Below the pieces are notes generated by a model. It saw nothing but the letters and a program-made list of their open reading frames with translations, made no database searches and was not told where the DNA came from. DNA of 63,479 nucleotides, from IMG/VR virus record IMGVR_UViG_3300020461_000006, positions 1 through 63,479 of that record, one strand, 5' to 3'. A program made the translations under genes and the position numbers. This DNA comes from a virus. Taxonomy: Duplodnaviria; Caudoviricetes. How positions within the stretch are numbered: position 1 is the stretch's first letter; every line of letters starts with the position of its first letter. This document shows, in pieces, positions 12,377-36,175 of the stretch.

Positions 12377-12762
12377 TAGTTTGCGTTGGCCTCGATCAGG
12401 GTGAACTGAAAGATCTCATATGACTCTCTTTGCGTCGTAGCTCTTGCCGCACTTGCTTGGACTAAATATTGCCTTACATAACTACTGTCTTTAAGTCTAT
12501 ATCGACGCTGAATGTTGGAATAAGGTTCCAGAGTACAAAGCAGGTAGTCTCCTATAGCTGCATTATCTAATGCAGTTCGCATTGTTGTGGCATCAGCCAC
12601 TTTCAGCGGCCTTGTTGTGATGTCGTACTCAACCATCCGAGAATTGACACCATCTGCAGCAATCTGCTCATAGCCATCACCAAATCCAAATCTACGCACG
12701 CGGTGTGACATGCGCTCTTGGACGGTATTGACAAGATCGATCCCAAAATTAACGTCGGCCAT
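12376..12762 (-). CDS. Minor (distal) tail protein M (lambda gpM-like)
   Basis: FGDGYEQIAADGVN signature; follows tape measure. Confidence 0.85.
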   Translation of the reverse strand: MADVNFGIDLVNTVQERMSHRVRRFGFGDGYEQIAADGVNSRMVEYDITTRPLKVADATTMRTALDNAAIGDYLLCTLEPYSNIQRRYRLKDSSYVRQYLVQASAARATTQRESYEIFQFTLIEANAN

Positions 12763-15700
12763 TGTGCAGCATTCCGCCTGATCTTCTTTCTTCCATGATG
12801 ACCCGTTTTACCGCAACATCGATGGCTTTGCCGAGTTTACCGGCATCATCACCTGACATTTCAGTATTAGAACCACCAGATTGATCAACATTGACTGTCA
12901 CGTTTGAAGTGACATCACCACCCATCTTTCCGCCCTTGCCAAAATCGACTGGGATGGCTTTGCCGTTGGGAAGAGGAACAACAGCTTCGTTCATTCCACC
13001 TTCGCCGATCATTGCGGCAGTAGGGCCTGTGACAATTCCGCCCTTAGCGAACTGACGAATACCGAAGTTGGGACCGAATGTTCCAAAGCCTTGTCCCATG
13101 GAGTTCTGCATGACGCCGCCACCTGAACCGATGCCAACCCCACTGGGCATTGATACTCCTTCGCCAATGCCTGCACCGCCGAAGAAAGAGCCACCTCCTC
13201 CGAACAAGTTCAGCAGTGTCTTAAAGACCAGCATCTTGATCATGTCGGCGATGATCTTCTGCGCCATCTGCATGAAGGAATCAGCGATGCCCTGGAACAT
13301 ATTGCCCAGGACTTCCTGCACAGATGCTGAGCCAGAGAGGATGTCCGCGAAACCTTGTGTGAAGGCTGTGCTGATGGCATTACCTACACCACCTGCAACC
13401 TCTCCGAGCATCTGGAAACGTTCCAGCATCGCGTCCATTTCTGCCTGACGCTCTGCGTTGAAGAGTTCTGCATTTTTAAATTCCTCGAACGCTTTGGCGA
13501 CAGACTCAGACATTTCGCCATCCCCTTCCTGGAGCAGCTGCGCACGCCGTGACTCAATCCGGCCTTGAGCAAGAATCTCGTTCTGCCTGTATTTATCGAA
13601 CTCCATACCAGCTGCCATCTGGGCGTTGCCCATGATGAGGTTCTGATCAGTGCGGAGTGTTCCTGACTTGGCATCACGCTGAAGAGACTGAATCTGGTTC
13701 GCTTGCTTCAGCAGTTCATTGGCCTTGATACGAAGAGCTGCTTCCTCTTTGAGCTGTTCGAGAATGCCACCAGCGCCGTTGTAACGCTCTTGGATAGCTG
13801 CAACGACTGCGTTGTATTCGTCTGCTTCGATCTCTCCACGTTTAAACGCAGCTTGAAGGCCTTCAACAGCTTCTCCAACCTCACGCTGCATGATCAGGTT
13901 CTTTGCTGTGGCATCAGCGTTGGCGCGTGCAGTCTCAGGATCGAGGCCTTTACCAAGTTCATCGAGCATTGCAGCAGCTTTAATTGCTGAATCCTTCAGC
14001 TGCTCCAGGGGAACGTTGGGCAGGAGGCTGGTGACGATGCGGTCAAGGTTGTCCTTGTTAGTCAGATCCTGTCCCGCTGCTCGGACAAAATTGATCTGAG
14101 CCTGAATACCTTGTGCTGCACGCTTAGCTGAAGCGAAACCATCGGCGCTTGCAAGACCTAAGTCAGCAGATTGGACAGTCTGCGTAGGTTTATCTAGATC
14201 GGGGATATTTAATTTGGCTTCCTCAGCTTCTTTTCTCTTACCTGCGAGTTGTTGCTCTTTGATCGCCATCTCCAAGCCTTTCTTCTTCAGCTCGGCGATT
14301 TTGCGCTCAATATCAAATCGGTAGTTAGCAATTTGCTTCTCAACATCAGCATTCGCGATGATCAGCTCTTGCTCAGCAGACTTAATTGCCAATTCACCTC
14401 GCTTCTTCTCGGAAATGAACGTGTTCAACGCTTGCAGGGCTGCTGCAGATGCGCCCTCCTCACCTTCGATGAGCTTCCGGTTACGGCGCTCCATCATGCG
14501 GATCTTGATCTGCTCCTGAGCTTGGAACAGTTCGAGGTTCTTTCTCGCTAGATCCTGTTGTGCCTGGAACTCACGGTTCGCGGCCTGATGATTAAAGTCA
14601 GTTCTAGCTTTTGCCAGAGACTCTTCAAGCTTTCCGTACTCCTTGCGGCGTGTTGTGATGTCTTCAGCAAGACGTTCCCTATCCTTCGTCTTTCCGTATT
14701 CAGTAATAGCATCTAGATAGGCCTTTTCAGCAATCAACCTCTTACCTGTTATCCGTTGAATCTGGTTATCTATCTCAACCAACTGAGCCTTACTAATTTC
14801 TCCTAAGACCGGGATATTGGCTTGATCTTTGATCTGTTTTTGATTCTTAATAAGCTGAGCTAACTCAGCATCTAAATCGGTATAGGCTTTTTTAAGTTTG
14901 TTGATACCAGCTTGCGCTTTAGCATCAGCGATTTCCTTCATCGCTTTCTGTGCTGCCGATGAGTTCTCATCAACATCAGCGAATGTTGTGTTTAGATCAA
15001 CAAGCGCATCGTTCATGCTGTTGATCGCAGCAGCATGCTTTTGAGCCCTCTGGAATCGTGCAAATGCCTCAACAAGACCTGCAACAGCAAGTTGTGCAGC
15101 AAGCAGGATGATGTTGAACTTCAGCACGTTCAGCATCAAGCCTTTTATGCCAGTTCCAAGTACAGCTGCACCACCGCCAGCGGTTGCCATTCCTGCGCCT
15201 GCCTTCGATGCAGCTCCTCCTGCAAGGTTTAGTTGCGTTATCAACGCAGTCATCTGAGGATTGACGATTCCCAACCGCTGCGCCACAGCAGTCAGCGCTG
15301 TAGCAAACGCCTGCATTGCTGCTCCAGCGAAGCCTGCAGCTGAAGCGAACGCCTTGCCCATGAACGCCATGACGCCGACCACAGCGGCCTTGAGCTTTGC
15401 GAAGCCTGCAATCAAGAACCCTGACGTGAGGGCGACCTTGACTAGAGCCCCTACACCGATCGTCTCTAAGAGTTTGAACTGTCCAACAATCGAGGCGAAG
15501 TACTCAACGACAGGTGTCTGGAGTAGTGAGCCGTAGATACCAAGAAGTCCCGCAAACCCATCGACTACAGGCTGCAACGCATATGCAAGAGCCGTGACTG
15601 TCTCTAACAGGCTCTTGAAGACTTCGACATTGAGGCTGGCAAAACCAACTGCCAGGTTTTTGAGTCCGGTTCCGACCTTGGCAAAGGTGCGAACAACCAG

Positions 15701-20631: not shown

Positions 20632-21534
20632 TCAGGCCTTTTCGACGTACAGGACGCTCTTGGGGTAGTACAGAGCGACACCGCCGACGCGTGCGTGAGC
20701 AGCAACGCTGAATTCCAGGTTGTTGCGGACAGGAGGCAGGAACTCCAGGGTGCGGGGGATGTGCAGCTGAAGCTTCTCGGGGGAGCGGTCGTAGCAGATG
20801 ATCCGATCCTTGGTCAGCACAGACTTGCCAGCTTCCAGCTCGTTGATCGGCTCGATGGAGCGGATGAACGGGTTGGTACGCAGGAAGAATTCCAGAACCG
20901 TGGTGTCGCTGGTGGTGGAGCGAGCGGTGGTGGAGATGATGCGATACACGTCGTAGGGGACGAGCATCGTGTTGGGGGATTCCTTCATGTTGGAACCCTG
21001 GACAATGCTGGTGGGGGCTTCGTTCAGAAGCTCCAACATTTCATCCGTGGTGCAGTTGTCGAACCATTTGTTAGGAACGGTCTTGTCAACGTTTGCGTTG
21101 TTGAAGAAGCCGTCCATAGAGACTGCAGTCTCGCCGAAGTAGGCGACGGATTGCACCTTCTCCTCGTAGGCACGACGTACTGCATTCGCGCGTCGCTGCT
21201 CAAGGTTCATGCCGGGCACCATTGCGGCGGCACGGGTTTCCTGGATGGTGTAGGCGAAGGAGGCACCCAGGCTGCGGACCTGATGGGTGACTTCCTTACG
21301 CAGCACGTCAGCGCGAGGCAGATCCGAGGCTTTGTCCTGGATCAGCTTCATGCTTCCCTGAGCATCGAAGATGCGGTATGTGAAGCTATCGGCACCGGGT
21401 CCAATCTCGGTCGAGATGGGAATTACGGTCGAATATTTGATATCGGCATACTGAACCTCGAAAGTTCTTGCCAATACCTGTTCTAATTCGCGAGCCAAAA
21501 ATAGGCCCACATCGTCATTGCGAATTTCAGACAT
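20632..21534 (-). CDS. Major capsid protein (DUF2184 / encapsulin-related HK97 fold)
   Basis: FLARELEQV, DLPRAD, YTIQETRAA, GGVALYYP motifs; strong GGAGG ribosome-binding site; biased codon usage. Confidence 0.9.
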   Translation of the reverse strand: MSEIRNDDVGLFLARELEQVLARTFEVQYADIKYSTVIPISTEIGPGADSFTYRIFDAQGSMKLIQDKASDLPRADVLRKEVTHQVRSLGASFAYTIQETRAAAMVPGMNLEQRRANAVRRAYEEKVQSVAYFGETAVSMDGFFNNANVDKTVPNKWFDNCTTDEMLELLNEAPTSIVQGSNMKESPNTMLVPYDVYRIISTTARSTTSDTTVLEFFLRTNPFIRSIEPINELEAGKSVLTKDRIICYDRSPEKLQLHIPRTLEFLPPVRNNLEFSVAAHARVGGVALYYPKSVLYVEKA

Positions 21535-21549: not shown

Positions 21550-22164
21550 TCAAGTATCGGCAGTAACAGTGAGAGTCGGGATGTCGATCTCAAGCAGTGC
21601 AATTGCACCTGCGGAAGCAGCACTCAGCCAGCGAGCACCCGCAGTTACCAGGAAGGTTTTTCCTGCTTCTGCATCTTTCGCGAAGCGGCCTTTGTATCCA
21701 TAATTGCTTGAGGCAGACGCGGAATCGGTGTGATAAACGCGAACTGCATCGCCGAGGGCGACAGCATCGGTGGTGTAGACATAAATCACGCCCTTTGAAA
21801 GGACGTTCACCATTTGCTTATCGGGGTACCCGACTCGACCATCAGAGGTCTTATAAGTCGGAGTGCTGGTATAGGTGGATTGTGCAGCGTTCTCAAAAAC
21901 GTTGCTATCCACGGCAATACCGAGGATGTCGGTGGCAGTAGCACCAGCAGGGAGCTTGGCACCCAGACCGGAGGTTGCAGAGCCATCGATGATCACAGCG
22001 TGACCGTAAGGAATTACGGCGCTGGATTCGTTGGTGTAGGACCGGGAGACATAAGCCTGCAGGTCGGCGATCAAACCCTCATGACCATTGGTCAGAGCCA
22101 GGGGATAAGCGCCCTGTGCTCCTGCGGGGTTCGAAACGTTGGTATCGGTGAAAGTAACAGCCAT
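21550..22164 (-). CDS. Capsid decoration/cement protein
   Basis: IPYGHAV, VNVLSKGVIYV motifs; between DUF2213 and capsid; AGGAG RBS. Confidence 0.75.
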   Translation of the reverse strand: MAVTFTDTNVSNPAGAQGAYPLALTNGHEGLIADLQAYVSRSYTNESSAVIPYGHAVIIDGSATSGLGAKLPAGATATDILGIAVDSNVFENAAQSTYTSTPTYKTSDGRVGYPDKQMVNVLSKGVIYVYTTDAVALGDAVRVYHTDSASASSNYGYKGRFAKDAEAGKTFLVTAGARWLSAASAGAIALLEIDIPTLTVTADT

Positions 22165-22179
22165 TAGTATTCGCTCCTA

Positions 22180-23421
22180 TCAAACGTGAGCAGTGAGATC
22201 TGACTTCCAACCGTTGAGCAGTTGCTCGCGGTAGGAATCACCGGAGTCGAGCTTCTCGGAGCCAGAAACGGCAGCGATTGCAGCGCGGACTTCAGCGACG
22301 TTGGAGCCGTCAGCTTCGGGTTGGAATTCGGCGTCAGCCTTGATTTCCTCTTCGTCCTCCTCGACGTCTTCCATAGCGGCGAGAACACCGTCAAGGACGC
22401 CCAGCAGGTAGTCGTTGTTGGCATCTTCGCGAGGAGCCTGTTCGAAGACGTTCTCGTAAGCGATAGCCATGATGGCCCGCTCATCTTCGCCGTCGAATTT
22501 GTACTCGTCCGGAAGGATGGGAGCGAACTTGTCCAGGGTTGCGAGGCGTGCGTTGACGGCCTCATTAATTTCTGCAGCGTCATCGCGCTTGTCTGCAGCT
22601 TCAGCAGATTCAGCGACTTGCTTTTCGAGTTCTTCGATACGCTCCAGAGCCGCATCAAGGCGACCAAGAGTTTCTTCGTTCTCTGTAACTACGGCTTGAA
22701 TTTGTTCTTCCTGAGAATCCAGCTTGCTTTGGAGGTCAGCCTTGGCACGCTCAGCCTCCTTAGCGAAGGATTGGACCGCGCCAGCAGTTTCTGCGGGAAG
22801 TTCAAGATCCAGGCCGTCGAGGGTGATTCGTGCCATGGAAATAACGGGCGAATTCGACGGGGTTTCATCCCACGCAATCGCATCATTGCGATCACATGAG
22901 TCGAGGATTAGGCGAACGTCACGACCCGCACGTCCCTTCGGAACAATCGCGATATGGTTAATCCGAATGTTGCGTTGGACGCCGTCGTAACTTTCACCTT
23001 GTGGTGTAACACCGGGGGTAGGATCAAAGTCAACGCGATAACCGCTGCTGACTTCCTGTGCATCGCCTCGCTGGATACGCTCAATAGCGCCCTTATCAGT
23101 GATAAGAAGCGCGACTTCTACGAACCCATCGTTGTAACGAACCTGCGAACCCGCATGTCCGATTTGATGCACCTTTGTGTTATCAGCATCAAGCAGAACC
23201 GGGGGATGACCCATGGTTACTGACTTCATACCGAAGGAAGCAAGAGACTCAGGCTTCGCTACTTCTTCTTCGGGGCGGTATTCACGGCACTGTTGGCCGT
23301 CACCACGGGTATAAAGCTGAGTCCCTACACGGGCCGCCTTACACCACACTTTCAAATACCCTTCATCCGTAGTTTCGGACTTAGATATTTGACCGTAATC
23401 GTAACGATGACAAGTCTCCAT
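22180..23421 (-). CDS. DUF2213 protein (putative prohead protease + scaffold)
   Basis: TDEGYL, ARVGTQLY, RPEEEV, VTMGHP, EVSSGY, QRNIRINHIAIVPKGRAG; acidic coiled-coil C-terminus. Confidence 0.9.
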   Translation of the reverse strand: METCHRYDYGQISKSETTDEGYLKVWCKAARVGTQLYTRGDGQQCREYRPEEEVAKPESLASFGMKSVTMGHPPVLLDADNTKVHQIGHAGSQVRYNDGFVEVALLITDKGAIERIQRGDAQEVSSGYRVDFDPTPGVTPQGESYDGVQRNIRINHIAIVPKGRAGRDVRLILDSCDRNDAIAWDETPSNSPVISMARITLDGLDLELPAETAGAVQSFAKEAERAKADLQSKLDSQEEQIQAVVTENEETLGRLDAALERIEELEKQVAESAEAADKRDDAAEINEAVNARLATLDKFAPILPDEYKFDGEDERAIMAIAYENVFEQAPREDANNDYLLGVLDGVLAAMEDVEEDEEEIKADAEFQPEADGSNVAEVRAAIAAVSGSEKLDSGDSYREQLLNGWKSDLTAHV

Positions 23422-23430
23422 ACCCTGATA

Positions 23431-23928
23431 CTAACTAAGTTTAACCGAGTTAGTAATATCTACCCCTTTTGTGAGGTAAGAATCCATGGTCAACTGTTTT
23501 ACGGTTGACGTATCAGTAATTAGATACGGATCCCAATTGAAAGAGTTAAATTGTTTCCTGAGCTTTTTCTGTGGCGGGTGCCAGTGGATCGATTGATGAG
23601 TATGAGCACTCAGGGGAACCATCCAAATGTGACCATATTCCAACGAAACGATGCCGAAATAATCAATCTCGTCTGCCGTATAAAGTCTCGCACCACCTTT
23701 GCAGCTTGTATTAAGGGTTGCTGCGTAATAATCAGACCCATCTTTTCTGCATCGGTACAGCGTCTTCACATTCACACGCACCAATTGCCCGTTCCACTCC
23801 ACGACGTAATCGACGCGATGTAGATCATGCTTTGGTGCGGCAATAAAGATGCCGTTTTGAAGGAAATGACCTTCAAATAGGTGCTCACCCTGTGCCCCTC
23901 GATGAGAGGCATTGCTGATAAAGGTCAA
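23431..23928 (-). CDS. Free-standing PD-(D/E)XK endonuclease (group I intron-associated type)
   Basis: GAQGE...VDYVVE...RVNVKT...YTADEIDYF pattern. Confidence 0.75.
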   Translation of the reverse strand: MTFISNASHRGAQGEHLFEGHFLQNGIFIAAPKHDLHRVDYVVEWNGQLVRVNVKTLYRCRKDGSDYYAATLNTSCKGGARLYTADEIDYFGIVSLEYGHIWMVPLSAHTHQSIHWHPPQKKLRKQFNSFNWDPYLITDTSTVKQLTMDSYLTKGVDITNSVKLS

Positions 23929-23961: not shown

Positions 23962-24051
23962 TTAGTGAGGCTTGATTTGGGTCATGTAAATGGTGGCTAG
24001 CAGGAGGCTAATCATCCACGACACGCCGAATGTGATCACGCCTTTAAACAT
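23962..24051 (-). CDS. 29-aa hydrophobic peptide MFKGVITFGVSWMISLLLATIYMTQIKPH
   Basis: TGATG coupling to upstream gene; single TM-like segment; below ORF-track cutoff. Confidence 0.5.
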   Translation of the reverse strand: MFKGVITFGVSWMISLLLATIYMTQIKPH

Positions 24052-24545
24052 CAGTAAGAGCGTTTTTTGTATGCGTCCATGATCTTTGCCATGCGATCAC
24101 GCACGTTCTTGGTCTTGGCGTGCCCGTCTTTGTAGAAAGATCCCAGGCGGTATGCACCGGCAGGTCGCTTGCTTCTCTTCTTCATGAAATCAGGCTCGTA
24201 CTTACGTCGTGCTTTGAGGATTGCTGCCTTGTGACGTCGCTTGCCTTTCGTCATTGCGGACTTGACCGCAACCTTGTGTCGACGTTGACCCTTGATGACT
24301 GCAGCTTTGTGTCGGCGCATTCCTAGTGCCGTTGCCCGCTCAGCTCTCAGACTGAGGGTGGGCGTCATCTTGATTGTGGTGACGGAGCCTGGCTTACGGC
24401 GTTTCAGTGCAGCTGCACCACCAGCAATGACCCCAGCGGCAGCGACTGCTTTTACAGCAGTGCCAGCGCCGGAGCCCTTGGAGCACTTAGCGGTGTTCGG
24501 GATGTAAGAAGCACCGCACTTCTTGTCAGTGCGTGATGTGGTCAT
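24051..24545 (-). CDS. Highly basic head-module protein with RTDKKCGASYIPNTAKC tag
   Basis: Lys/Arg-rich; shared Cys tag; internal RRHK repeats. Confidence 0.75.
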   Translation of the reverse strand: MTTSRTDKKCGASYIPNTAKCSKGSGAGTAVKAVAAAGVIAGGAAALKRRKPGSVTTIKMTPTLSLRAERATALGMRRHKAAVIKGQRRHKVAVKSAMTKGKRRHKAAILKARRKYEPDFMKKRSKRPAGAYRLGSFYKDGHAKTKNVRDRMAKIMDAYKKRSY

Positions 24546-25021
24546 AGGTTGTACTTCCTAAGGAGTCGCCTACTCAACAACGCAGAAGCTCCAATTGATC
24601 CAGCAAGAATGCCCAATTCAGCTGCAGCTTTGCCTGCCTTTTTGAGTCCCTTGCCTGCGCCTCCGCGTTTCTTCTTTACCTGCTTACTTTTCTGACTGCT
24701 TGACCCCAGCTCAGCCTTTCCTTCTGGGGTTTTGAAGTATTCCATGGCAAGCTTCTCTGCCTTGGGGCTGTTTGCTCCCAGCTTGCTCGGGTCAATACCT
24801 TTGTTCTTGAGGAACTTTGCGTAAGCACCCTTTGCTTGCACCGATTCTCCACCCCATTTTTCAGGGCTGTTAGCACCGCCGGTCTTCGCACGCCCCTTAG
24901 CCTGGCCTGCCCCCTTTTGACACTTAGCGTTCTGGGGAATGTAGGAGTTACCGCAGGGTTTATCCAACCGGACAGCATTGAACTGATCAACGCTGTCATT
25001 GAGCACATCAGGGGTAAACAT
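24542..25021 (-). CDS. Basic head-module protein with RLDKPCGNSYIPQNAKC tag
   Basis: Shared Cys tag; C-terminal hydrophobic Gly/Ala segment. Confidence 0.75.
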   Translation of the reverse strand: MFTPDVLNDSVDQFNAVRLDKPCGNSYIPQNAKCQKGAGQAKGRAKTGGANSPEKWGGESVQAKGAYAKFLKNKGIDPSKLGANSPKAEKLAMEYFKTPEGKAELGSSSQKSKQVKKKRGGAGKGLKKAGKAAAELGILAGSIGASALLSRRLLRKYNL

Positions 25022-25023
25022 GA

Positions 25024-25962
25024 TCAGCGGCGTTTTTTCTTAGATCCAGGAAGCATCTCCATACCCCCGCCTTGATAGGAACGCACACCTTGAGCACGAC
25101 GTGACGCCGTTTGACGAAGTTGTGTCATCCGGCGGCGTAGGTTTTTAGAACCACCAGTCCGTTTGTATCCAGCAATTCCGCCGAGAGCTGCTTCCTGGCC
25201 GACACCAAATGCAGCAAGCTTGCCTGCAGATTTAGAAAACTCTTTTGCTAGTCCTTTGTTGCCTAAACGAGAAGCTTTAGACGCACCAGCCAATTGAGCT
25301 GCTGATGCACCCAGGGAAACATTACGGAGTCCGCGGGAGGCCATACCGAGGTTGCCCGTCAACAGACCTGCATAGGCTTGAGTAGCACCAACACCAATTG
25401 CAGCACCACTACCTACGTTGGCGGCGAACTCACCTGCTCTTTTTATCTTGTTGCCAACACCTTTTGTAGTGGCTTTCGCCTTATAGAACTGGGCTCGACG
25501 TTTCTCAACAGCTGGGCCTGACCCCTGCAGTTGCCTCAAGGAAAAGTCACTGGGTTTTGTACCAGCCTTTTTGGCTTTACCTGCTCCCTTAGAACACTTC
25601 TCGTTCTGAGAAATATATGAGTTGCCGCAGGGTTTGTCGGCACGCTCCTCTTCGTCATCGTTAATCAGAAGTCCACTGAGTTCTTCAGCGACCGCATCAC
25701 ACTTCTTGCCATAACCATCAGCGTATGGACCCTTACGACCCATGTCTTCCTTGCTGCACTTCTTGCAGCCATCCTTGTCGTAGTAGCCAGCAGGATTGCC
25801 CTTAGGATCCTGTCGCTTCACGCCTTTCTTCTTCTTTGCAGTCTTAGCTGAATCCCTGAAATCCTTTGCAGAAGGTGCGCCCTCTTCACCGGGCTTACGC
25901 ATCTTCTCACCGCGCTTACGTTTTGCGTGAATGTTGGCGTACAAGCCAGGTTTTTTGCTCAT
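25024..25962 (-). CDS. Basic head-module protein with RADKPCGNSYISQNEKC tag
   Basis: N-terminal GLYANIHAKRKR module; internal Cys tag; Gly/Ala-rich hydrophobic segments. Confidence 0.75.
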   Translation of the reverse strand: MSKKPGLYANIHAKRKRGEKMRKPGEEGAPSAKDFRDSAKTAKKKKGVKRQDPKGNPAGYYDKDGCKKCSKEDMGRKGPYADGYGKKCDAVAEELSGLLINDDEEERADKPCGNSYISQNEKCSKGAGKAKKAGTKPSDFSLRQLQGSGPAVEKRRAQFYKAKATTKGVGNKIKRAGEFAANVGSGAAIGVGATQAYAGLLTGNLGMASRGLRNVSLGASAAQLAGASKASRLGNKGLAKEFSKSAGKLAAFGVGQEAALGGIAGYKRTGGSKNLRRRMTQLRQTASRRAQGVRSYQGGGMEMLPGSKKKRR

Positions 25963-26819
25963 GTCTCCCTCGTTGGAGTAGGACCGAAAGTTTCAAACGA
26001 GGCGGGACCGTAACTTAAGTTCACGCCTTTAGATCTAGCGTAACTAAGAACTTCTTCTCGGTGCTTTTTTCTCAGCCGGTCATACTCTGGATCGATGTCA
26101 AATACATCGTCAGAGTAAGGAGCGAGATAACAACGGCAGCGAGGATGACGGGGTACAGCAATTGCATTTCTCTTAAATACGTTTCCCGCTTGTGATGTGC
26201 AGACTTCACAGGTGCGGTCGTCAGAAGTGGCGAAATACATCACCAGTTCAATTCCATTCTGCGCGTAGTAATTCCTAGATGCTTCGTTGTGAGCCCTTAA
26301 AGATTCGGTTCTTACAATGACTTCAGCGCGTGTTTTGGTGACGCGTAGTCGTCGCTTCAAGTCCTTGGTAATCAGCTCTGTAGGTCGTCCCTCGGCGATC
26401 CCTTGCGCTAATACTTCTGCAGCGGTAGTCGAAAATGTACGTCCATGTTTTTCTAGGTATCCTCTCGCTTGCCTCGCTGCTGCTGTCACTGCTTCTACTG
26501 GGACGGTTACAGCGACTTGAGACTGCGATACAGACTTCGATAGCTGTTCAGCTAGATCTAGGCCAAAGGATGTTGAGCGAGATAACAGGCGACGAAATGA
26601 GGTTAAGTATTCGTCAGATTGATCCGGACGAAGAGCAGGTATCAACTCCAAAGTCCGAGCGTTTCTCTCTGCAGTCTGAAATTGACCGCTTCGTAACTGA
26701 GCGTAGGTACGCCGAAGAAGACGATTGAAAGCCTTATCTAATGACTTATTGACGATCTCAATGGTCTGATTTTCCTGGCCCTTCAAGGCTGTGTTGTAAG
26801 CCTCAATCAGATCTTCCAT
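25959..26819 (-). CDS. Minor head / head morphogenesis protein (SPP1 gp7 / Mu gpF family)
   Basis: RAEVIVRTE, DDRTCEVC, PRHPRCRC. Confidence 0.92.
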   Translation of the reverse strand: MEDLIEAYNTALKGQENQTIEIVNKSLDKAFNRLLRRTYAQLRSGQFQTAERNARTLELIPALRPDQSDEYLTSFRRLLSRSTSFGLDLAEQLSKSVSQSQVAVTVPVEAVTAAARQARGYLEKHGRTFSTTAAEVLAQGIAEGRPTELITKDLKRRLRVTKTRAEVIVRTESLRAHNEASRNYYAQNGIELVMYFATSDDRTCEVCTSQAGNVFKRNAIAVPRHPRCRCYLAPYSDDVFDIDPEYDRLRKKHREEVLSYARSKGVNLSYGPASFETFGPTPTRET

Positions 26820-26822
26820 CTT

Positions 26823-27023
26823 TTACACAAGGTCGTTAAGCAGCAAGGTATCCATGAGCACGCAGAACAACCCGTCACGAAGCATCTCTAGCTCTACCTG
26901 CTCATTGGGATCGCCACCAGGCCAGCTTTTATAGGACTCAGTAACGCTCTTATGTAGCAACCGAAGAGCGGCGAGATTGCAGTTGATAGTTACCGGGAGA
27001 TCACCGTTGTCAGTTGGTTCCAT
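26823..27023 (-). CDS. Hypothetical protein
   Basis: 66 aa, WPGGDPNEQ motif; operon packing. Confidence 0.6.
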   Translation of the reverse strand: MEPTDNGDLPVTINCNLAALRLLHKSVTESYKSWPGGDPNEQVELEMLRDGLFCVLMDTLLLNDLV

Positions 27024-27150
27024 TTTGCTGGAGCTTCTTGTCGATCTTCAGGGCCTTCTTTAGCAACTTTTGAGCTTTCTTTCTTGTTGTGCAATTATCT
27101 GCATCTGTGAGAACTTGAATTAGCTTTTGATGTTGCTTTGCCCTGTTCAT
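27010..27150 (-). CDS. 46-aa basic hypothetical protein (MNRAKQHQKL...)
   Basis: Fills the gap between coupled genes; below ORF-track cutoff. Confidence 0.5.
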   Translation of the reverse strand: MNRAKQHQKLIQVLTDADNCTTRKKAQKLLKKALKIDKKLQQNGTN

Positions 27151-27152
27151 GA

Positions 27153-28802
27153 TCAGCTCCTGCGTGATCGTTTACCAGAGCACTTCCACTTAGCTCGCGA
27201 GAGGCACAGAGGAGTGTTCCGATCCTTTCCAGCGCAGTTTTTATTGTGAGATTTCATGTCTCCGAAACTACGAGCGCAGTAACGGTCACCTTTGTTGGTA
27301 CCAGGGGCAATGCTGTAACCCTTAGCTCCGTATTTGACGGTGCGCTTACGTCCCGTCTTGGGATTGGTCACCGTCTTACTGAACTTTTTTCCTTCGGCAT
27401 CCGCAGCCTCCGAATCACGGAACAGACGCTTGTGCTTCAAGGGATAAATACGATCTGCCTCGCTGTAGAAAGGCTTCTGCTCTGAGCTGAAGCTGCGCTT
27501 GCCTTGGGCTCCATACTTACCTGTGCCCTTAGCACGCATCTTCTCTAGCTCTCGTTTTTGATAGGCAGTCAGCCCGGTCTTGCGGAATTTGCTGCGGATC
27601 TTGCGGCGGTTCTTTAGAGCAGCTGCACCGCCTACAACCAGAGCAGCGCCTGCTGCTGCCTTAGCGATCGTGCGTGCGGTGTTCTTCTTTGTGCATTTGG
27701 CGTTATCCGGGATACCGGAGTTGCCGCACTTCTTGTCCTCACGCTCGGCCTCGTCCATCCCAAAGCGCTCCTGCCAAGAACGTGGATCAGGTTTAGGTCC
27801 TCTGACTCCCTCCGAACGAATGAAGCTAGAAACTGTTCTGCGTCCAGCCCTAAAGCTACGTTGAGCGGAGCTGATCCCAGCGTTGTAAGCGTTCTTGATT
27901 GGGTTTTGAGACTTGAGAAGCTTGCTCCTGAGTTTGGAGGCTCGGCTGGTAGTCGTGTTTAGTTGTTTGAACGCAGATTGATACGCAGACTCGCGAGTGT
28001 TGAAGTCAGATTGTGCCTTGTTGACTGCGTTGTTAGCCCTGCGGAAAGCAGTCTCAGCTGATTTCAGATTGGTAGCGCGTGCTCGATCGGTCTGAGCAAT
28101 CGATTGAGGATTCTGTCCTAGGGCAAATCCACTTCTGCGCTTGCCTTTGTTTTGCATGGCGGCTTTTGCAGCCTCCAATCGGGTTTTCTCAGTGCTGAGT
28201 TTTTCTTGGGCTTTGCTAAGTGTGCTTTGAGCGCTGTTGCGAGCAGATTCCAGGGGCTTGATCTGTTTTTCAAGTCGGAAACGCTGTCTTGTGAGACGTT
28301 TAAAGGCACCTAGATCTCGCTTACGGCGAGCAAATGCCATACCGACACCCGCTCCAATATCAAAACCACCGACAGCCATATTTGCTGCGCCTGCAACTGC
28401 AGCAGTCGTGCCACCAAAGGCGGAAGCAACACCAAGGCCTTGAGAAACGGCCCCAGATTTACGCTTTAACTTCAAGGCCAATGCTGGGTTTTTAGCTCCC
28501 AAAGTTGCGGCACCTGCAACAGCAGCACCAACAGCAGCGGCACCACCAATGGCAGTCAGGGCACGACGAGTTCTACGACGGCTGCGGGCTTTTTGAATCT
28601 TCTCCTTCTGCTCCGCCGAAAGCTGAACTGCATTGCCGCGAGTGGGAGGTGTTTGTCCTTCACCTTTGATGCGGCAGTTCCAGTGCTTGGGAATGCAGCG
28701 TCCACCACATTGCTTGCCTTTCTCGGTACAAGCACGTTGGGCTTTGGCGTCACCCCGTAACGCTGCCAAATAAAGTTCTTTTGATTCAGATCGCTTTGTC
28801 AC
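27153..28802 (-). CDS. Large basic multi-module head protein with Cys tags
   Basis: RGD...C-x5-CGGRCIPKHWNC at N-terminus; REDKKCGNSGIPDNAKC internally; coiled coil; C-terminal YCARS Cys module. Confidence 0.75.
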   Translation of the reverse strand: MTKRSESKELYLAALRGDAKAQRACTEKGKQCGGRCIPKHWNCRIKGEGQTPPTRGNAVQLSAEQKEKIQKARSRRRTRRALTAIGGAAAVGAAVAGAATLGAKNPALALKLKRKSGAVSQGLGVASAFGGTTAAVAGAANMAVGGFDIGAGVGMAFARRKRDLGAFKRLTRQRFRLEKQIKPLESARNSAQSTLSKAQEKLSTEKTRLEAAKAAMQNKGKRRSGFALGQNPQSIAQTDRARATNLKSAETAFRRANNAVNKAQSDFNTRESAYQSAFKQLNTTTSRASKLRSKLLKSQNPIKNAYNAGISSAQRSFRAGRRTVSSFIRSEGVRGPKPDPRSWQERFGMDEAEREDKKCGNSGIPDNAKCTKKNTARTIAKAAAGAALVVGGAAALKNRRKIRSKFRKTGLTAYQKRELEKMRAKGTGKYGAQGKRSFSSEQKPFYSEADRIYPLKHKRLFRDSEAADAEGKKFSKTVTNPKTGRKRTVKYGAKGYSIAPGTNKGDRYCARSFGDMKSHNKNCAGKDRNTPLCLSRAKWKCSGKRSRRS

Positions 28803-30601
28803 GGGTATTCGAACGTGGTTTTCAGGTGTTCGATATCTGCATCCTGAAGTAGTGTCACTCCACTTACTTCTTTATCGGCTGCATAAGTTTGCAGTGCCTT
28901 CTTGGCTGATCGAGATGAATAGAAGCCAAGCAACAGTGGGCCTGACTCCATTGTGCCGTCTTCTCTAGTGAAGTGGCCTCGATATACCTTCTTATCGTTA
29001 AAACGATTGCCTATAAGTAGCAAAGACTCGGCATCATTTCTCTGCCCATCAATATGGGTTACATAACCCACTCGGAAGGATCCATTTGATTTTCCAGCGA
29101 TGATCGACAGTCCACTCATGCGGATGATGTCGTCCTCATCAGTCACTTCTTGCTGTTGAGGTGGAGCCTCCTCAGGTTGTGGTTGCATGGACTGCTCCAG
29201 AGCAGCCTGCTGTCCGACATATCCCTGGATCAGAGATTCCTGCTCAAGTTGAGCCTTCAGAAGCAGACGCTCTTCCTCTTCTTCCTGCAGCGCCGTTTCA
29301 ATGCTGTATTCAGTGCCAGAGAAGCGAGCCTTACGAACTTCAATCGCAGTCAACACACCCATCTCGACGTAGAGCTTGTCGGTGTTAGCAACCTTGGATC
29401 GCAGTTCAGCTTTGTCGCTGTCTGACTCTGAGTAGTAAGGCGGGAAGTAAACGCTCCATTCTTCTGGAACCTGACCCTGTGTCGGTCCTTCCGGCATCGC
29501 CAATACCAGCTGGAAGAACTGGTTCAGGGGTTGGCGCAGGCTGTGTGTTTGGAAGCGCTCCACTGCTGCTGCCCAGGACTTGTCCTCGTATTTGCCGGAC
29601 TCTGAAAGACCACCAGCAGGAGACGTTCCGAACAGCAACGTCTTCGGCATGTCGGCTGCTGCGACGAGGTCATCAGTCAGTCGATCGAAGATCTCTTGAG
29701 CACCTCCAAGGGAGCGTGATGCGAAGGAAACTTCTTCCTCCGTGTCCAGTGCCATGCCGCCGTACAACGACCTAGCAAGTGCATTGGCTTCGAGACGTGT
29801 CTTGAGAGCCTTCTCGTTCCCGGCTGTGACCTTACTGGCGAGCCCAGGAATTTTGTGGACGAATAAATCCATCTCGTTGAGCATCGTTGCCATGCCATCA
29901 GTGGCACCGCGATACCTCTTCCACACCTCGTAGAAGGGTTGGAGATAGCTCTGTCCCCAGCCCTCGTTCAGTAGACGTTGCCGCCAGGGGAGATACAGAC
30001 CATCGAGGCGCAGCACCCTGCTGTTGTGGACGAGCAGGTAGTTGAGATCGTTCTCTGTCGTTACTGCCTTACTGGTGGAGATCCTGTAAAGCTCAGGCTT
30101 CCGGTAGTTGAGGTAGTTGTAGTCGTGGGGAACGATCTCTCGTCGGGAAAGCGGGACGAGGTCAGCAATGCCCCGGACACGCTCAGGAACAACAGGCTCA
30201 CTAGGCTCAAGCCCATCATCGAGGACCAGAAATAGTGCAGCTCCTCCATAGATTCGCTGTAGCTTGAGCGCTTCTTCGATGTACGCGTAGAAGTCAATTT
30301 CCTCCAGGTAATTCTCGAAGGACTTGAGAATGCCGTCGTAATCTTCAGTCTCTTCGCCCAGCTTGATGGTGGGTTGCTCAGTGACAGCAGCCTCTGCGTA
30401 GATGTCGATGACGCGACGACACAAAGGGTCGTAATACAGCGCCTCTAGTTCTGCCTCAGATAACTGCTTGGGAGAACGAAGTGCGAAGTACTCGCTTTTA
30501 TCCTTCTTTGTGCCAAGACCCGTGATGGCGTTGACAAGCACACCATCGTTGCGGATATCAGAATCCATTTTGATCTCTGGAGTTTCCGAAGTTTCCGACA
30601 A
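28799..30601 (-). CDS. Portal protein (DUF1073 family) with C-terminal extension
   Basis: NAITGLGT, RIYGGA, VHNSRVL, GWGQS, ADMPKTLLFGTSPAG; follows terminase. Confidence 0.9.
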   Translation of the reverse strand: MSETSETPEIKMDSDIRNDGVLVNAITGLGTKKDKSEYFALRSPKQLSEAELEALYYDPLCRRVIDIYAEAAVTEQPTIKLGEETEDYDGILKSFENYLEEIDFYAYIEEALKLQRIYGGAALFLVLDDGLEPSEPVVPERVRGIADLVPLSRREIVPHDYNYLNYRKPELYRISTSKAVTTENDLNYLLVHNSRVLRLDGLYLPWRQRLLNEGWGQSYLQPFYEVWKRYRGATDGMATMLNEMDLFVHKIPGLASKVTAGNEKALKTRLEANALARSLYGGMALDTEEEVSFASRSLGGAQEIFDRLTDDLVAAADMPKTLLFGTSPAGGLSESGKYEDKSWAAAVERFQTHSLRQPLNQFFQLVLAMPEGPTQGQVPEEWSVYFPPYYSESDSDKAELRSKVANTDKLYVEMGVLTAIEVRKARFSGTEYSIETALQEEEEERLLLKAQLEQESLIQGYVGQQAALEQSMQPQPEEAPPQQQEVTDEDDIIRMSGLSIIAGKSNGSFRVGYVTHIDGQRNDAESLLLIGNRFNDKKVYRGHFTREDGTMESGPLLLGFYSSRSAKKALQTYAADKEVSGVTLLQDADIEHLKTTFEYP

Positions 30602-30644: not shown

Positions 30645-30842
30645 TTAGCTGAGACCGAGTTTTCCCAGCAGTGCTTTGGTGTTCGATGCCTTTTCTTGGT
30701 GGTAACGGTTTAGATCCCTGATGCAGAACTGCAAGTCCTTATAGAACTCCTCTTCAGGGTTGGGGAAGTCAAAGTACTCCGATACAGAGTCCATCAAGGC
30801 ATCACGACGACGCTTCTTAAGCGCTTCATCCTGGTAGTTCAT
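30645..30842 (-). CDS. Hypothetical protein
   Basis: ATG coupled to terminase stop (TAATG). Confidence 0.6.
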   Translation of the reverse strand: MNYQDEALKKRRRDALMDSVSEYFDFPNPEEEFYKDLQFCIRDLNRYHQEKASNTKALLGKLGLS

Positions 30843-32254
30843 TAGATGAGATCTAACCAATCAGTTGTGGGAGTTGTAGCAACTACTGAGAGTGCAAGAG
30901 CGAGTGCCATCACCGAATCATCGTGTGCGCCATCTCCTGCCTGTCTATCACCTGTTTCCAGCTGTCTAAACATCAACATCTCCTGATAGAAGGGATCTCT
31001 AGGAACCTTCAGCTCCTCACGCTCCAGGAAGTAAGTGATGCGATCCGTATTTGAGATTTTGTTGGGTCTGTTGGTGTTGTATGGCTCGACCATGTACTTT
31101 GCCAGAGCCTTTGAGAGAATCTCAGATACGACAGCACCGACACCGTTCTTCTCGACGATCACTTTTGAGGGGCTGAAGTTCTCTGCCTGCTCAATGATCT
31201 GTTTGATGCAGTAGTCGGAGGACTTATATCTGACACGGAACATATTGACCACTTGGTACGGCGCAGTGGTGATGTCCAGGACAACGGAGCACCAGTAATC
31301 ATCACCACCTCCAGCTGGGTCGATCGCCATGATGTAGTCACGGTTGATCAGTCCTGACTCGATACAGCGACCGTGACACGCTTTCTCCACCAGTTCGGGT
31401 GGGAAGACCTGAGCGTCTGAGGCGACATAGTCCATCTCATATTCCTGCCTCCACGCTCTGTCTGTCAGTTTTGCCTTGGCTTTTGTTTTCGCAGCCCAGT
31501 CAGGATCCGACGCATAGATCGGAATACTTGAGTAATGGATCTTGAACCGATTCCAGCCGTCGTCTTCGCCGTGCCAGAGGTTGGCGAACATGTTTCCCAT
31601 CCCGTTTGGGGTGGATAACAGGATGAGCTTGGACTTCTCGCCGAGCGTTGCCATCGTCGGCTGTGCTGCGGTGTAAATCTCGTCTGCTCCATCGAGGAAA
31701 GCGGCCTCGTCGAGCACCACCACGGAAACAGAAGGGATACCACGGGCGGCTCTTGGGGTAGCAGGTAGGAAATAGATGGTTCCGAGTCCTTTGAACGACA
31801 GTTCGCTGTTGGATTCGGTGGTGAACTCAATTGATGAGTCCTCGATGCTTGCGGCCTGGGCTCGGATCCGTTTGCCCAACGCACCGGAGTCAGTAGCCGT
31901 TTTGGAGAACACCACTGCTGCGAAGCCTGGTTCAGTCAGAGCGCGACACAGCAGGTAGGAGCAGACCGTTTCAGAAGCGCCGACCTGGCGGGACTTCAAG
32001 ACGATCGTGTACTGGTGAGAACAGATCGAATTAATCAGCTTCTTCTGGATATCGAAGGGCTGAAAGGGTTTGACGCTGCCTGATGTTCTGATCCACGTCA
32101 GTGGTGCGAACTGATCCCACTTGTCTGCAGTTGGAAATTTAGGTTTGAAACCAACAGCAGTAGATGTAAGGCGCTTCTCAGCTGCCTCGCGGTCATGCTG
32201 CTCCTGTAATTTCTCTAACCTCTCCAACCGGGTTAAGTGTTTGGCGTTGGGCAT
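30842..32254 (-). CDS. terL: Terminase large subunit
   Basis: Walker A LKSRQVGAS, Walker B VVLDEAAF, LLSTPNG, nuclease AIDPA and HDDSVMALAL. Confidence 0.95.
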   Translation of the reverse strand: MPNAKHLTRLERLEKLQEQHDREAAEKRLTSTAVGFKPKFPTADKWDQFAPLTWIRTSGSVKPFQPFDIQKKLINSICSHQYTIVLKSRQVGASETVCSYLLCRALTEPGFAAVVFSKTATDSGALGKRIRAQAASIEDSSIEFTTESNSELSFKGLGTIYFLPATPRAARGIPSVSVVVLDEAAFLDGADEIYTAAQPTMATLGEKSKLILLSTPNGMGNMFANLWHGEDDGWNRFKIHYSSIPIYASDPDWAAKTKAKAKLTDRAWRQEYEMDYVASDAQVFPPELVEKACHGRCIESGLINRDYIMAIDPAGGGDDYWCSVVLDITTAPYQVVNMFRVRYKSSDYCIKQIIEQAENFSPSKVIVEKNGVGAVVSEILSKALAKYMVEPYNTNRPNKISNTDRITYFLEREELKVPRDPFYQEMLMFRQLETGDRQAGDGAHDDSVMALALALSVVATTPTTDWLDLI

Positions 32255-35017: not shown

Positions 35018-36100
35018 TCAGACGAGAGCCAGCAGGGACTTGCGGGCTCGGTCGATGCGCTTCGCACTGGCACCGCCGTAAAGAGCCTCCAGACGTGTGC
35101 GGGCTTTGTCGGTGACGCTGCGGCTCATGCCACGGTTGCGACCTCGGTCATGAGTCTCGAACTGGGTGATGGCCTGGAACAGTCCCCAGGCAGTGCCCTT
35201 TTCAACGCCAAAGCCCGTGTCACCGCTGTAATGCGAGTTGATGACATCGATGTAGGAAAGATCAGTGAGCAGACGCGGACGCGTTGCCCCGCTGTTCTTA
35301 TCCGTAACAGGACGAGACAAGTCATCGGAATAGGTATGCTCCAGGACTGCTTTGGCTTGATCCGAGTTCAGGCGCAGCGTCGTTAGAGGTCGCAGGGTCT
35401 GGAGGTCGATCTCGAACTTCAGCTGTTCGACGTTGATCAGACGAGGCAACGCCTTAGCGAACGCTGTGACAGATGCGGTGTGACGCATGACCATGCCTGC
35501 ACCCTCTTGCTTGGCGCGGTTGGCACCTTTGTTGCAGAGGAAGTTGATCTGGTTGGCACACTGCAGTCGGACGTCTGAGAAGAAGACGCCGAAGGCAGAG
35601 GAGCCATCAAAGGAGTTGAAGGCGTGGAGGTAGCGACGGACCTTGTCACCTGAGGTGACTTCGCCCTCGATGTCGCAGCGAGCAGAGACGAACACCTTCT
35701 TGCCACCACGGATGGTGAGGATGTTGTCGATCTCTACGTTCTCCCGCAGGTAGTCGAACAGCAGAACCAGAGCGTCGTTCTGCACCGGGGTGTAGTTGCT
35801 GCTCATGACGCCAAGCGAGACGCCTGTGTCCTCCCTGACGAGGTGGCAGTGCTCATCGTCGACGCGAGTCTCGCCATTGTGCTGATAGGTGCTGACGACC
35901 TTGTTGACCTTGAAGTCTGCGTCAGCCAGACGGAAGGCTTCGGAGGCGGACACGTTCTCGGTGATGAGCGTTCCGCCCGCTTGTGCAACCAGGGGATTGA
36001 CCTGATAACCATTCTCCTTGTACTTGCCATAGACCATTGCCTCCTTTTCTCGGGAGTATTGGGTGCTGACGGCGTTCGCGTATTTGAACTGGGAAGTCAT
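35018..36100 (-). CDS. DUF932/DUF945-family protein
   Basis: YTPVQND, GGKKVF, NSFDGSSA, VRLQCANQ, RHT, TAWGLFQAITQFETH; start reassigned to MTSQFKY (36100), which follows the promoter and leader motif. Confidence 0.85.
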   Translation of the reverse strand: MTSQFKYANAVSTQYSREKEAMVYGKYKENGYQVNPLVAQAGGTLITENVSASEAFRLADADFKVNKVVSTYQHNGETRVDDEHCHLVREDTGVSLGVMSSNYTPVQNDALVLLFDYLRENVEIDNILTIRGGKKVFVSARCDIEGEVTSGDKVRRYLHAFNSFDGSSAFGVFFSDVRLQCANQINFLCNKGANRAKQEGAGMVMRHTASVTAFAKALPRLINVEQLKFEIDLQTLRPLTTLRLNSDQAKAVLEHTYSDDLSRPVTDKNSGATRPRLLTDLSYIDVINSHYSGDTGFGVEKGTAWGLFQAITQFETHDRGRNRGMSRSVTDKARTRLEALYGGASAKRIDRARKSLLALV

Positions 36101-36146
36101 GGGGTAGTTAGGTGAGAGAGATACGAGGACGTTGCCCGTCCTGTTG

Positions 36147-36175
36147 AGGATACGAATATCCACCTGACCTGTCTA
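36147..36175 (-). promoter_or_regulatory. Sigma70-type early promoter TAGACA-17-TATCCT
   Basis: Exact 17-bp spacing; followed by AGGACG-GGCAA-CGTCCT hairpin, leader motif and ATG; -35 lies inside a CTGACCT-N4-AGGTCAG palindrome. Confidence 0.6.

Follow-up and report, generated by a model that had tools for sequence, protein, structure and literature searches.

The window analysed here, the whole 63,479 bases of IMG/VR virus record IMGVR_UViG_3300020461_000006 (estimated to be 90% complete), belongs to a siphophage whose head module encodes four dissimilar basic proteins, p549, p312, p159 and p164, that carry the same short element with two invariant cysteines, named here the tag. We propose that these genes form a variable array of cargo proteins that would be packaged in the head and ejected, the cysteine hairpin of the tag being their common incorporation or retention element; a probability of roughly 0.45 is assigned to this reading. 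Its parts do not stand equally firm: the four proteins are probably packaged in the head, and the proposal that the tag itself is the address is more tentative and somewhat doubtful.

Five copies of the motif K-x-C-G-x-S-x-I-P-x4-C are found on the minus strand, in frame with the four open reading frames (ORFs) that lie between the portal and the DUF2213 protease; their first cysteines occupy residues 10, 23, 32, 112 and 359. Protein p164 (24051..24545) carries RTDKKCGASYIPNTAKCSKG at 24474..24533, with its 12-residue core at 24483-24518 (residues 10-21), and p159 (24542..25021) carries RLDKPCGNSYIPQNAKCQKG at 24911..24970 (core 24920-24955, residues 23-34). The tag of p312 (25024..25962) is RADKPCGNSYISQNEKCSKG at 25585..25644 (core 25594-25629, residues 112-123). 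Two tags are borne by p549 (27153..28802): an N-terminal form with four cysteines, C-x6-C-x3-C-x6-C, at 28674..28730 (core 28674-28709; residues 25-43), and a second copy, REDKKCGNSGIPDNAKCTKK, at 27684..27743 (core 27693-27728). A 34-column profile, built from 103 copies with the five window copies among them, scores these five at 41.7-58.7 bits (54.0 bits in p164, 58.7 in p159, 57.7 in p312 and 55.9 for the second tag of p549). An earlier note on this DNA, made from its letters alone, had described four dissimilar basic ORFs with one motif and a variant at the N-terminus of p549. Both are confirmed, the variant with its four cysteines, and the coordinates given were right to within 3 nucleotides, the fourth 20-mer lying at 27684-27743 instead of 27687-27743.

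The likeness between the copies is not a matter of chance. The core pattern C-G-x3-I-x5-C (regular expression CG.{3}I.{5}C) has 5 matches in the six-frame translation of the window, all inside these four ORFs, against a mean of 0.29 and a maximum of 3 in 200 mononucleotide shuffles, none of which (0/200) reaches 5; in 2000 residue shuffles of the four proteins the mean is 0.0015. In BLASTP comparisons between the four proteins, with SEG filtering and composition correction, the only significant similarity (E<0.01) covers 18-29 residues around the motif, with E values of 9e-8 to 2e-4. Without filtering, residues 5-51 of p164 match residues 354-400 of p549 at 57% identity over 47 residues; the Gly/Ala segment downstream of the motif, which the two proteins have in common as well, accounts for this longer match. 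Where two copies have identical residues, the same codon is used at only 1 of 5 to 10 of 15 positions per pair, and the likeness is therefore kept by purifying selection on the protein. These codon differences rule out a recent duplication as the source of the similarity. A low-complexity artefact is ruled out by the survival of the motif under SEG and composition correction, and a lipobox or signal peptide, in the phage proteins, by cysteines that are internal and flanked by lysines.

The four proteins are strongly basic, with net charges of +85 for p549 (isoelectric point, pI, 11.1), +41 for p312, +19 for p159 and +38 for p164 (pI 11.4). Uncharged Gly/Ala-rich stretches, 15-32 residues long, occur in all four, one or more in each. 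In p549, two such stretches cover residues 81-103 and 116-147 (28362..28562), and a further one, in common with p164 (residues 33-47), follows the second tag at residues 382-396 (27615..27659). Those of p312 span residues 179-209 and 214-228, and the uncharged stretch of p159 residues 136-150. Acidic runs (DEAERE, DDEEER) precede the internal tag copies.

The rest of these proteins, here called the payloads, is largely anonymous. No Pfam domain is detected in any of the four and no Pfam, PHROG or NCBIfam family in p549; a Pfam search of the payload parts at E<=5 returns nothing credible, and an ESM Atlas search with p164 and p549 no usable match. The N-terminus of p312 (residues 3-45, 25828-25956, KPGLYANIHAKRKRGEKMRKPGEEGAP...) matches phrog_16028 at 1.6e-18, a small basic domain of function not known that also occurs inside larger phage proteins (phrog_22379). 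In the C-terminal part of p164 (24051-24380), three RRHK(A/V)A(V/I) repeats belong to a long predicted helix, residues 64-116, with a predicted local distance difference test score (pLDDT) of 70-80. The C-terminal domain of p164, RRKYEP..LGSFYKD..VRDR..KIMD.Y, is invariant in 10 orthologues, belongs to no known family and is also fused behind another tagged module in the related locus L029. Protein p549 has a central helical part and ends, after a Lys/Gly-rich stretch, in a further four-cysteine cluster, ..DRYCARSFGDMKSHNKNCAGKDRNTPLCLSRAKWKC.. (27153-27300), without a Pfam match at E<=5; the relative L007 carries DUF5872 at a comparable position.

Distribution and fold of the mini-domain

The tag is widespread. 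A profile search of 1.84 billion proteins retrieves 636 cluster representatives at E<=1e-3, 166 of them at E<=1e-10, with up to 9 tag copies in one protein. A word-indexed search yields 356 matches, partly overlapping, among 8000 scored candidates from marine and other metagenomes, and the only names that these matches bear are "hypothetical protein" and "Bud32". A pattern scan of IMG/VR gives 32 loci with 116 same-strand copies in 82 distinct ORFs, 1 to 8 copies per locus; six further matches on the opposite strand look like chance. From 567 distinct instances the consensus is R-x-[GD]-K-[PK]-C-G-x-S-x-I-P-x4-C-x-K, in which both cysteines are present in 100% of cases, G in 91%, I in 90%, K in 71%, P in 69%, S in 64%, the last K in 53% and R in 49%.

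No model for the tag exists in Pfam, PHROGs or NCBIfam. Literature text searches did not retrieve a description of it, which is weak support since a text search cannot find a sequence motif. In the portion of PMC5512222 covered by our searches, its text without the FTP supplement of LPD alignments, which lay outside the scope, the words cysteine, disulfide, transmembrane and ribbon are absent, and a term look-up in part of PMC9503650 likewise gave no description of the motif. Among the phages of INPHARED, no match was obtained by megablast with the 10-kb head region, tblastn with p159, or tblastn with the 34-residue tag at E<=10; with no cultured carrier there, no virion proteome was found for a tag-bearing phage. 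On sequence grounds, the motif is a real, unnamed mini-domain.

Its cysteines act in pairs, which is in keeping with the closed structure that the earlier note had imagined. Among 693 distinct instances, 334 have only the two invariant cysteines. A cysteine at -7 is present in 160, always together with one at +4; the latter is found in 180 instances, and 17 of the rest have a cysteine at -6. A C/H/H/C form, with histidines at +4 and +9, accounts for 95. An extra pair gained or lost together on top of two invariant cysteines is more readily explained by one or two disulfides than by a metal site with four ligands. The four-cysteine form also exists in bacterial proteins with signal peptides from metagenome-assembled genomes (MAGs), a 112-residue Rhizobium protein, encoded amid housekeeping genes, and a 135-residue Bdellovibrionales protein. 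Taken with the paired cysteines, these exported relatives make a disulfide hairpin likely. In the two bacterial sequences (L041:1540-1944 and L042:3827-4162, from the Bdellovibrionales and Rhizobium MAGs), the element reads C-x5-C-G-N-[ST]-C-I-x5-C-H and has no family name; one of the two has two copies with a Pro/Ala-rich linker between them.

Structure prediction gives a sketch of this fold. The AlphaFold2 model of p549 residues 1-110 (mean pLDDT 57) shows a β-hairpin, strands 29-32 and 35-38, at the C-G turn, in a block of pLDDT 61-69. In the p164 model (mean pLDDT 57), the two-cysteine tag is a coil of pLDDT 41-44, and helices are predicted at residues 29-41, 64-116 and 143-160. A complex prediction of portal, MuF-like protein and 34-residue tag, with alignments as input and without controls, scored 0.00 and is neutral on binding.

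Profile searches of the PDB retrieve only sub-threshold matches, to LDL-A domains (E 0.06-0.9) and GAL4 zinc clusters (E 0.2-0.8), and the four-cysteine form matches, again weakly and below threshold, the first half of LDL-A and a spider knottin/toxin family. The four-cysteine form, C..CG.RCIP..W.C, resembles the first four cysteines of LDL-A (PF00057), and the covarying -7/+4 pair presumably corresponds to the C1-C3 disulfide of that domain. Scores are, however, 12-15 bits against a gathering threshold of 24.1, they cover profile positions 2-22 of 37 and are reached by 3 of 10 phage segments; LDL-A has six cysteines and a D-x-S-D-E calcium cage, whereas the tag has two or four and no acidic calcium-binding cluster. 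The likeness is a lead on the probable fold, not membership of the family.

Payloads and linkage to head genes

The tag is modular, as the earlier note had supposed, and in relatives it precedes interchangeable payloads: kinases, ADP-ribosyltransferases, J-domains, LRAT/NlpC and polyvalent-protein domains. A Pfam scan covered 70 of the 82 tagged ORFs, the 12 left out being four of L001, which is near-identical to the window, duplicates and short end pieces. Domains are recognised in 19 ORFs, and 51 have no Pfam family; the 19 comprise 12 kinase-like proteins (RIO/APH/Kdo/Pkinase), 3 DnaJ, 1 LRAT/NlpC, 1 ADPrib_exo_Tox, 1 DUF6321 and 1 Portal_Mu+MuF. Among 61 scanned representatives from the 150 best, 22 have families, with 8 DnaJ, 8 kinase-like, PI3/PI4-kinase-like and LRAT domains among them. 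Some are polyproteins that repeat the tag before each module: P0204 combines InPase, ART-PolyVal, PolyA_pol and HD domains with tags in between. P0263 has ART-PolyVal and DUF3990, P0147 an ATLF-type zincin and P0150 Rho_N. The domains of these four are among those by which polyvalent proteins are defined. No viral contig was found for the contexts of P0263, P0147 and P0222. The profiles of the lineage's MuF-like and portal proteins, run against 268 family proteins, detect no fusions.

In 47 of the 70 ORFs the first tag is no more than 50 residues from the start, and in the other 23 it is further in; in every case of the window lineage examined, with positions read by eye, the payload begins some 90-150 residues C-terminal to the nearest tag. 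A sample of 78 ORFs with 105 tags from L002-L032 was used to characterise the intervening segment. Downstream of 46 tags, within 60 residues (median distance 18), there is an uncharged hydrophobic stretch of 17 residues or more, and 48 of the 61 such stretches fall in these post-tag zones, which represent ~18.5% of residues. The eight residues that follow the stretch are net positive in 40 of the 46 cases. The true share is understated here, since the strict 17-residue criterion misses the 15-residue, Lys-bounded stretches of p164 and p549.

That the motif would travel with this head module was the expectation of the earlier note, and it is borne out. Window-type head genes are encoded on the same strand in 30 of the 32 loci of the IMG/VR scan. 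The two exceptions are L024, described below, and L032, which ends before the place that the protease occupies in its near-identical relative L030. A further scan, based on a DNA pattern that encodes the K-P-C-G-x-S-H-I-P form, retrieved 75 loci of at least 4 kb, some of them overlapping pieces of one contig and three repeating contigs of the first scan. Window-type head genes are present in 57 of the 59 loci with a profile match, against 0 of the 16 in which the DNA pattern matched by chance. As nearly all of these loci belong to one phage lineage, 30/32 and 57/59 describe a lineage trait and not independent events.

Measured between its conserved flanks, the portal-protease slot of this lineage differs in length from 4.5 to 10.1 kb. 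Its first ORF after the portal is tagged in 25 of 25 complete non-redundant slots; setting aside MuF-like and endonuclease genes, 85 of the 115 ORFs in these 25 slots are tagged. The nearest isolate is Synechococcus phage S-CBS4, whose DUF2213 protein is 38% identical to that of the window and which retains portal and protease; no match to the lineage MuF profile was found in it. Its slot (L033, record 9161-14127) contains two glycosyltransferases, a SAM methyltransferase, an HNH endonuclease and a repressor-like gene. Since the slot is filled there with other genes, it is a general hotspot for accessory genes. For the host range of the lineage, this isolate and contigs of Thermosynechococcus MAGs give the only hints.

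The tag is also linked to two head lineages other than that of the window, at least three in all. In L024, a 1028-residue protein consists of Portal_Mu and MuF domains, a tag at residue 740 and a C-terminal tail, in this order, and the protease encoded downstream is of a different family. The 105-kb viral contig L043 has another capsid protein family (phrog_1005) and Mu gp36-like genes, and its head module harbours 10 tags in four ORFs: a 761-residue ORF, a 406-residue ORF, the 2212-residue polyvalent protein P0204 and a 312-residue ORF. This lineage has tags that no hydrophobic stretch follows. The 406-residue ORF has its tag N-terminal to a C-terminal Mu-like_Pro prohead protease, an architecture found in 8 of 121 homologues of this protease, down to 53% identity, one of them with three tags. 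Directly after the tagged ORFs, a 574-residue ORF (L043:17625-19346) has a PI3/PI4-kinase-like catalytic stretch (1.5e-11), and the same kind of match is seen in P0222 (2122 residues, six tags). Only 2 of 68 loci with InPase or ART-PolyVal homologues have the tag, which is therefore not a general feature of polyvalent proteins. In L040 (same contig as L019), the gene for a tagged DnaJ protein follows a distant DUF2213-cement-capsid set, with a few genes in between.

Proposed packaging and its alternatives

Head-gene placement and fusion to MuF, portal or capsid protease are the accepted indicators of head packaging, as stated in the parts of PMC5512222 and PMC9503650 covered here. A final location inside the prohead is suggested for the tagged proteins by the order of their genes and the coupling of these genes to portal and MuF, by how basic the proteins are, by the types of payload they carry, and by the fusions with portal-MuF and a prohead protease. 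In the mechanism that we favour, p549, p312, p159 and p164 would be the cargo genes of a variable cassette array occupying the portal-protease slot of a marine siphophage lineage. Each cargo module would open with the mini-domain R-x-[DG]-K-[KP]-C-G-x-S-x-I-P-x3-K-C-x-K, probably a β-hairpin in which the two invariant cysteines close a 10-residue loop, most likely through a disulfide formed once the particle leaves the reducing cytoplasm. A Gly/Ala-rich uncharged helix with a basic C-terminal flank would usually come next, in this lineage, and then the variable payload, which in the window appears to be a basic, non-enzymatic segment. The cargo proteins would most likely become part of the prohead and exit together with the DNA. 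Through the mini-domain, unrelated payloads would share this route; it would act as an incorporation or retention signal, similar in logic to the capsid-targeting sequence (CTS) of phage T4 and unrelated to it. On these grounds, and with T4 as the closest worked-out case, this reading is ranked first, and the cargo-loading interpretation of the earlier note is partly supported.

Several observations weigh against it. The tag is internal in p312, in the second copy of p549 and in 23 of the 70 scanned ORFs, and polyproteins repeat it before each module, where one address per polypeptide should suffice. It accompanies three unrelated portal/protease/capsid gene sets, so that no single conserved receptor is evident; this and the repetition in polyproteins are the main facts that a simple address leaves unexplained. 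In the portal-MuF and protease fusions, the head protein could be the vehicle and the tag a mere part of the cargo. Of the slot ORFs counted above, 30 of 115 are untagged, many shorter than 135 residues and perhaps not genes, some 250-450 residues long, and the S-CBS4 slot has no tag. A tagged LRAT+DnaJ polyprotein (L039) is encoded among methyltransferase genes and not head genes, tagged ORFs of L131 and L212 adjoin tail genes, and the exported bacterial proteins with the four-cysteine form have a non-phage context. The AlphaFold2 models of the tag are of low confidence, and no cultured phage in INPHARED has the motif.

A bolder version, which we consider rather unlikely, holds that the cysteine hairpin, alone or with the Gly/Ala helix, is a portable tag sufficient for prohead loading and delivery of any payload in HK97-type siphophages. 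Marine phages would thereby shuffle injected kinases, ADP-ribosyltransferases, J-proteins and lipid- or wall-active enzymes, with a disulfide formed only outside the cell as the lock. If true, this would amount to a polymorphic-effector system for virions.

The tag may instead be unrelated to loading and act after ejection, an explanation that we regard as unlikely. The hairpin would be oxidised on the periplasmic side and the helix would lodge in the inner membrane, with the payload tethered at its cytoplasmic face, or the helices would bundle into a DNA conduit. This would suit the post-tag hydrophobic stretches (46/105 tags; 48/61 stretches) and their positive flank (40/46), the uncharged stretches in all four window proteins and the export of the four-cysteine bacterial relatives; moreover, kinase, ADP-ribosyltransferase and J-domain payloads need the cytoplasm. 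It leaves no reason for a tag on a prohead protease and does not fit the L043 lineage, where tags occur without hydrophobic stretches. Polyproteins with three or four tag-helix-payload units would adopt conflicting topologies unless cleaved, and many stretches are only ~15 residues long and interrupted by lysine. The place of the tag between domains in polyproteins (P0204, L007), between MuF and the C-terminal tail in L024 and N-terminal to the protease domain in L043 and its relatives rather brings to mind a processing element. Here the motif would be a boundary cut by the prohead protease, or by an autocatalytic step at the K-C bond, that splits polyproteins and head-protein fusions. Prohead protease sites are short, though, and 20 residues with invariant C, G, I and C at fixed spacing point to a folded element. 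The acidic runs ahead of the internal window copies (DEAERE, DDEEER) would agree with a cleavage site; across the family, no residue exceeds 19% at positions -8 to -6 and no acidic or small residue is conserved upstream. For 47 of the 70 ORFs, cleavage would shorten the protein by fewer than 50 residues. Processing as the role of the tag is considered quite improbable, and it may coexist with an address, as the T4 targeting sequence is also a cleavage site according to the passages of a review used here (PMC9026906).

Two further explanations are given still less weight. A metal knuckle, in which the motif binds zinc and, with the Lys/Arg-rich payloads, condenses or escorts packaged DNA, would account for the extreme basicity of the proteins, and the four-cysteine (160/693) and C/H/H/C (95/693) forms as well as the weak matches to the GAL4 zinc cluster profile (E 0.2-0.8) could be cited for it. 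It is rated very unlikely. Against it stands that 334 of the 693 instances have only two cysteines, without His or Cys at the covarying positions, and two ligands cannot alone hold zinc. The extra cysteines come and go together, the behaviour expected of a second disulfide, relatives occur behind signal peptides, and the other weak matches are disulfide mini-domains (LDL-A, spider toxin family). It is just as improbable that the tagged proteins are not virion proteins at all, being late host-takeover or membrane proteins that merely reside in the head operon, with a motif serving their own biochemistry. No virion proteome of a tag-bearing phage was found, the L039 polyprotein is encoded outside the head module and the bacterial relatives are not phage proteins. 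Opposed to this are the consistent placement and translational coupling within head modules, the fusions to portal-MuF and prohead protease, and the occurrence of the tag on polyvalent-protein domains, which are predicted to be injected in the part of PMC5512222 covered here.

Whichever of these applies, the tag provides a concrete handle on the selection of head cargo, as a short, defined motif on hundreds of putative cargo proteins; polyvalent and MuF-fused effectors have so far been predicted from gene context alone. To our knowledge, the choice of head-packed proteins in tailed phages other than T4 and P1 is poorly understood. The tag also draws attention to a large group of unannotated enzymes of marine siphophages that are candidates for injection (kinases, ADP-ribosyltransferases, J-domains) and, if portable, may become a tool for protein loading into phage capsids. 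Were it a membrane or processing element instead, it would still be a new conserved module of virion-associated proteins.

Head module and known systems

The head genes of the window run on the minus strand in the order large terminase, portal, p549, a 66-residue acidic protein, MuF, p312, p159, p164, PD-(D/E)XK, DUF2213, cement and major capsid. The module starts with the large terminase (30842-32254) and the 600-residue portal (28799..30601; Pfam Phage_portal_3, 2.7e-59; phrog_146), whose net charge is -34. The MuF-like minor head protein (25959..26819, 286 residues; Pfam Phage_Mu_F, 2.4e-13) is untagged. Downstream of the cargo genes, the DUF2213 prohead protease (22180..23421; Pfam DUF2213, 6.6e-43; phrog_530, "head maturation protease") is followed by the cement protein (21550-22164; Pfam Phage_cement, 2.2e-22) and the major capsid protein (20632-21534; Pfam Major_capside, PF09950, 5.3e-56), with which the module ends. 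Start and stop codons overlap by 4 nucleotides at portal/p549, MuF/p312 and p159/p164, and by these overlaps the putative cargo array is translationally coupled to portal and MuF. Residues 200-413 of the DUF2213 protein contain 19 K+R versus 56 D+E, and this acidic C-terminal half of the protease suggests a scaffold-like part.

Two untagged genes interrupt or border the array. Between p549 and MuF, p66 (26823..27023, the 66-residue protein; phrog_628, 7e-14) has a pI of 4.2 and is retained in some relatives (L001, L005, L137); as a small acidic partner beside very basic cargo, it could be a chaperone candidate. Between the array and the protease, a PD-(D/E)XK endonuclease-like gene (23431..23928; Pfam PDDEXK_5, 5.4e-8; phrog_5018), with a gap of 122 nucleotides upstream, is found at the same place in many related loci and could be either a fixed homing-type insertion or a head-associated nuclease. 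Elsewhere, the window encodes lambda-type tail genes (proteins L, K-like JAB, M and J, with a 1419-residue tape measure), a family A DNA polymerase, a primase-helicase, a class II ribonucleotide reductase and ThyX. DUF932 proteins are encoded in two unrelated phages, the window (35018-36163, minus strand) and L043 (763-1734), where the gene is directly upstream of an untyped 519-residue ORF that precedes the tagged array.

Several known systems bring proteins into capsids or deliver them with the DNA. The cargo peptide of encapsulins is short and directs diverse cargo into a shell of HK97 fold. It is C-terminal and without cysteines, in a shell without portal or terminase, whereas the window tags are N-terminal or internal in a phage head with portal and terminase; the encapsulin analogy of the earlier note therefore adds nothing. 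In podoviruses, the head stores ejection proteins (P22 gp7/16/20, T7 gp14-16) that exit ahead of the DNA or together with it and that interact with membranes. They are conserved conduit proteins, unlike the variable array with enzymatic payloads seen here, and the window encodes a long lambda-type tail. The DarA-Hdf proteins of the myovirus P1 are bound to the inner surface of the capsid, a different mode of loading. We know of no such cysteine motif in the P22 and T7 ejection proteins, nor of one shared by the P1 Dar proteins. The latter (DarA/Hdf/DarB) are otherwise comparable, being head-internal, tied to morphogenesis, lost with the DNA at ejection and active against defence, as reported in the part of PMC12810830 covered here.

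Closer parallels are offered by polyvalent and MuF-fused effectors. With domains such as kinase, ART-PolyVal, InPase and zincin, these are products of genes situated among head genes, and injection is predicted for them, according to the covered parts of PMC5512222 and PMC9503650. The window, as a portal-terminase phage with its tagged genes placed among head genes, agrees with that description. At least two disparate domains, the other hallmark of polyvalent proteins, are absent from the window proteins and present in relatives (L007, P0204, P0263, P0205); P0204, P0263 and P0147 are true polyvalent proteins that bear the tag. MuF is a separate 286-residue gene in the window, and only L024 joins Portal_Mu, MuF and tag.

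The closest resemblance is to the internal proteins of T4 (IPI-III, Alt), for which the passages of the T4 review covered here (PMC9026906) describe how divergent basic proteins, among them the ADP-ribosyltransferase Alt, are targeted to the prohead core by an N-terminal sequence that they have in common. This sequence binds the scaffolding core and is then cut off, being itself the cleavage site, and it is suggested there that the propeptides of the protease may target it likewise. The window shows the like: otherwise unrelated basic proteins, encoded at a variable place in the head region, have a short sequence in common. The T4 proteins become part of the prohead and reach the host by ejection, and their genes differ from one related phage to another (PMC9026906); for the window proteins, packaging is a prediction. 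The two elements, likened by description and not by sequence comparison, differ in form: the T4 CTS has ~10 residues, lies at the extreme N-terminus and is removed by gp21, and the tag has 20 residues with two invariant cysteines and is often internal or repeated. The head core differs as well, with Phage_portal_3, MuF, DUF2213, cement and PF09950 in a siphophage in place of the gp21 protease and gp22 scaffold. A shared targeting element on variable internal proteins is thus already known from T4, and injected polyvalent effectors are known as predictions; to judge from the searches covered here, the motif, its pairing with a Gly/Ala-rich helix, its presence on hundreds of proteins and its occurrence in the heads of HK97-type siphophages appear to be undescribed.

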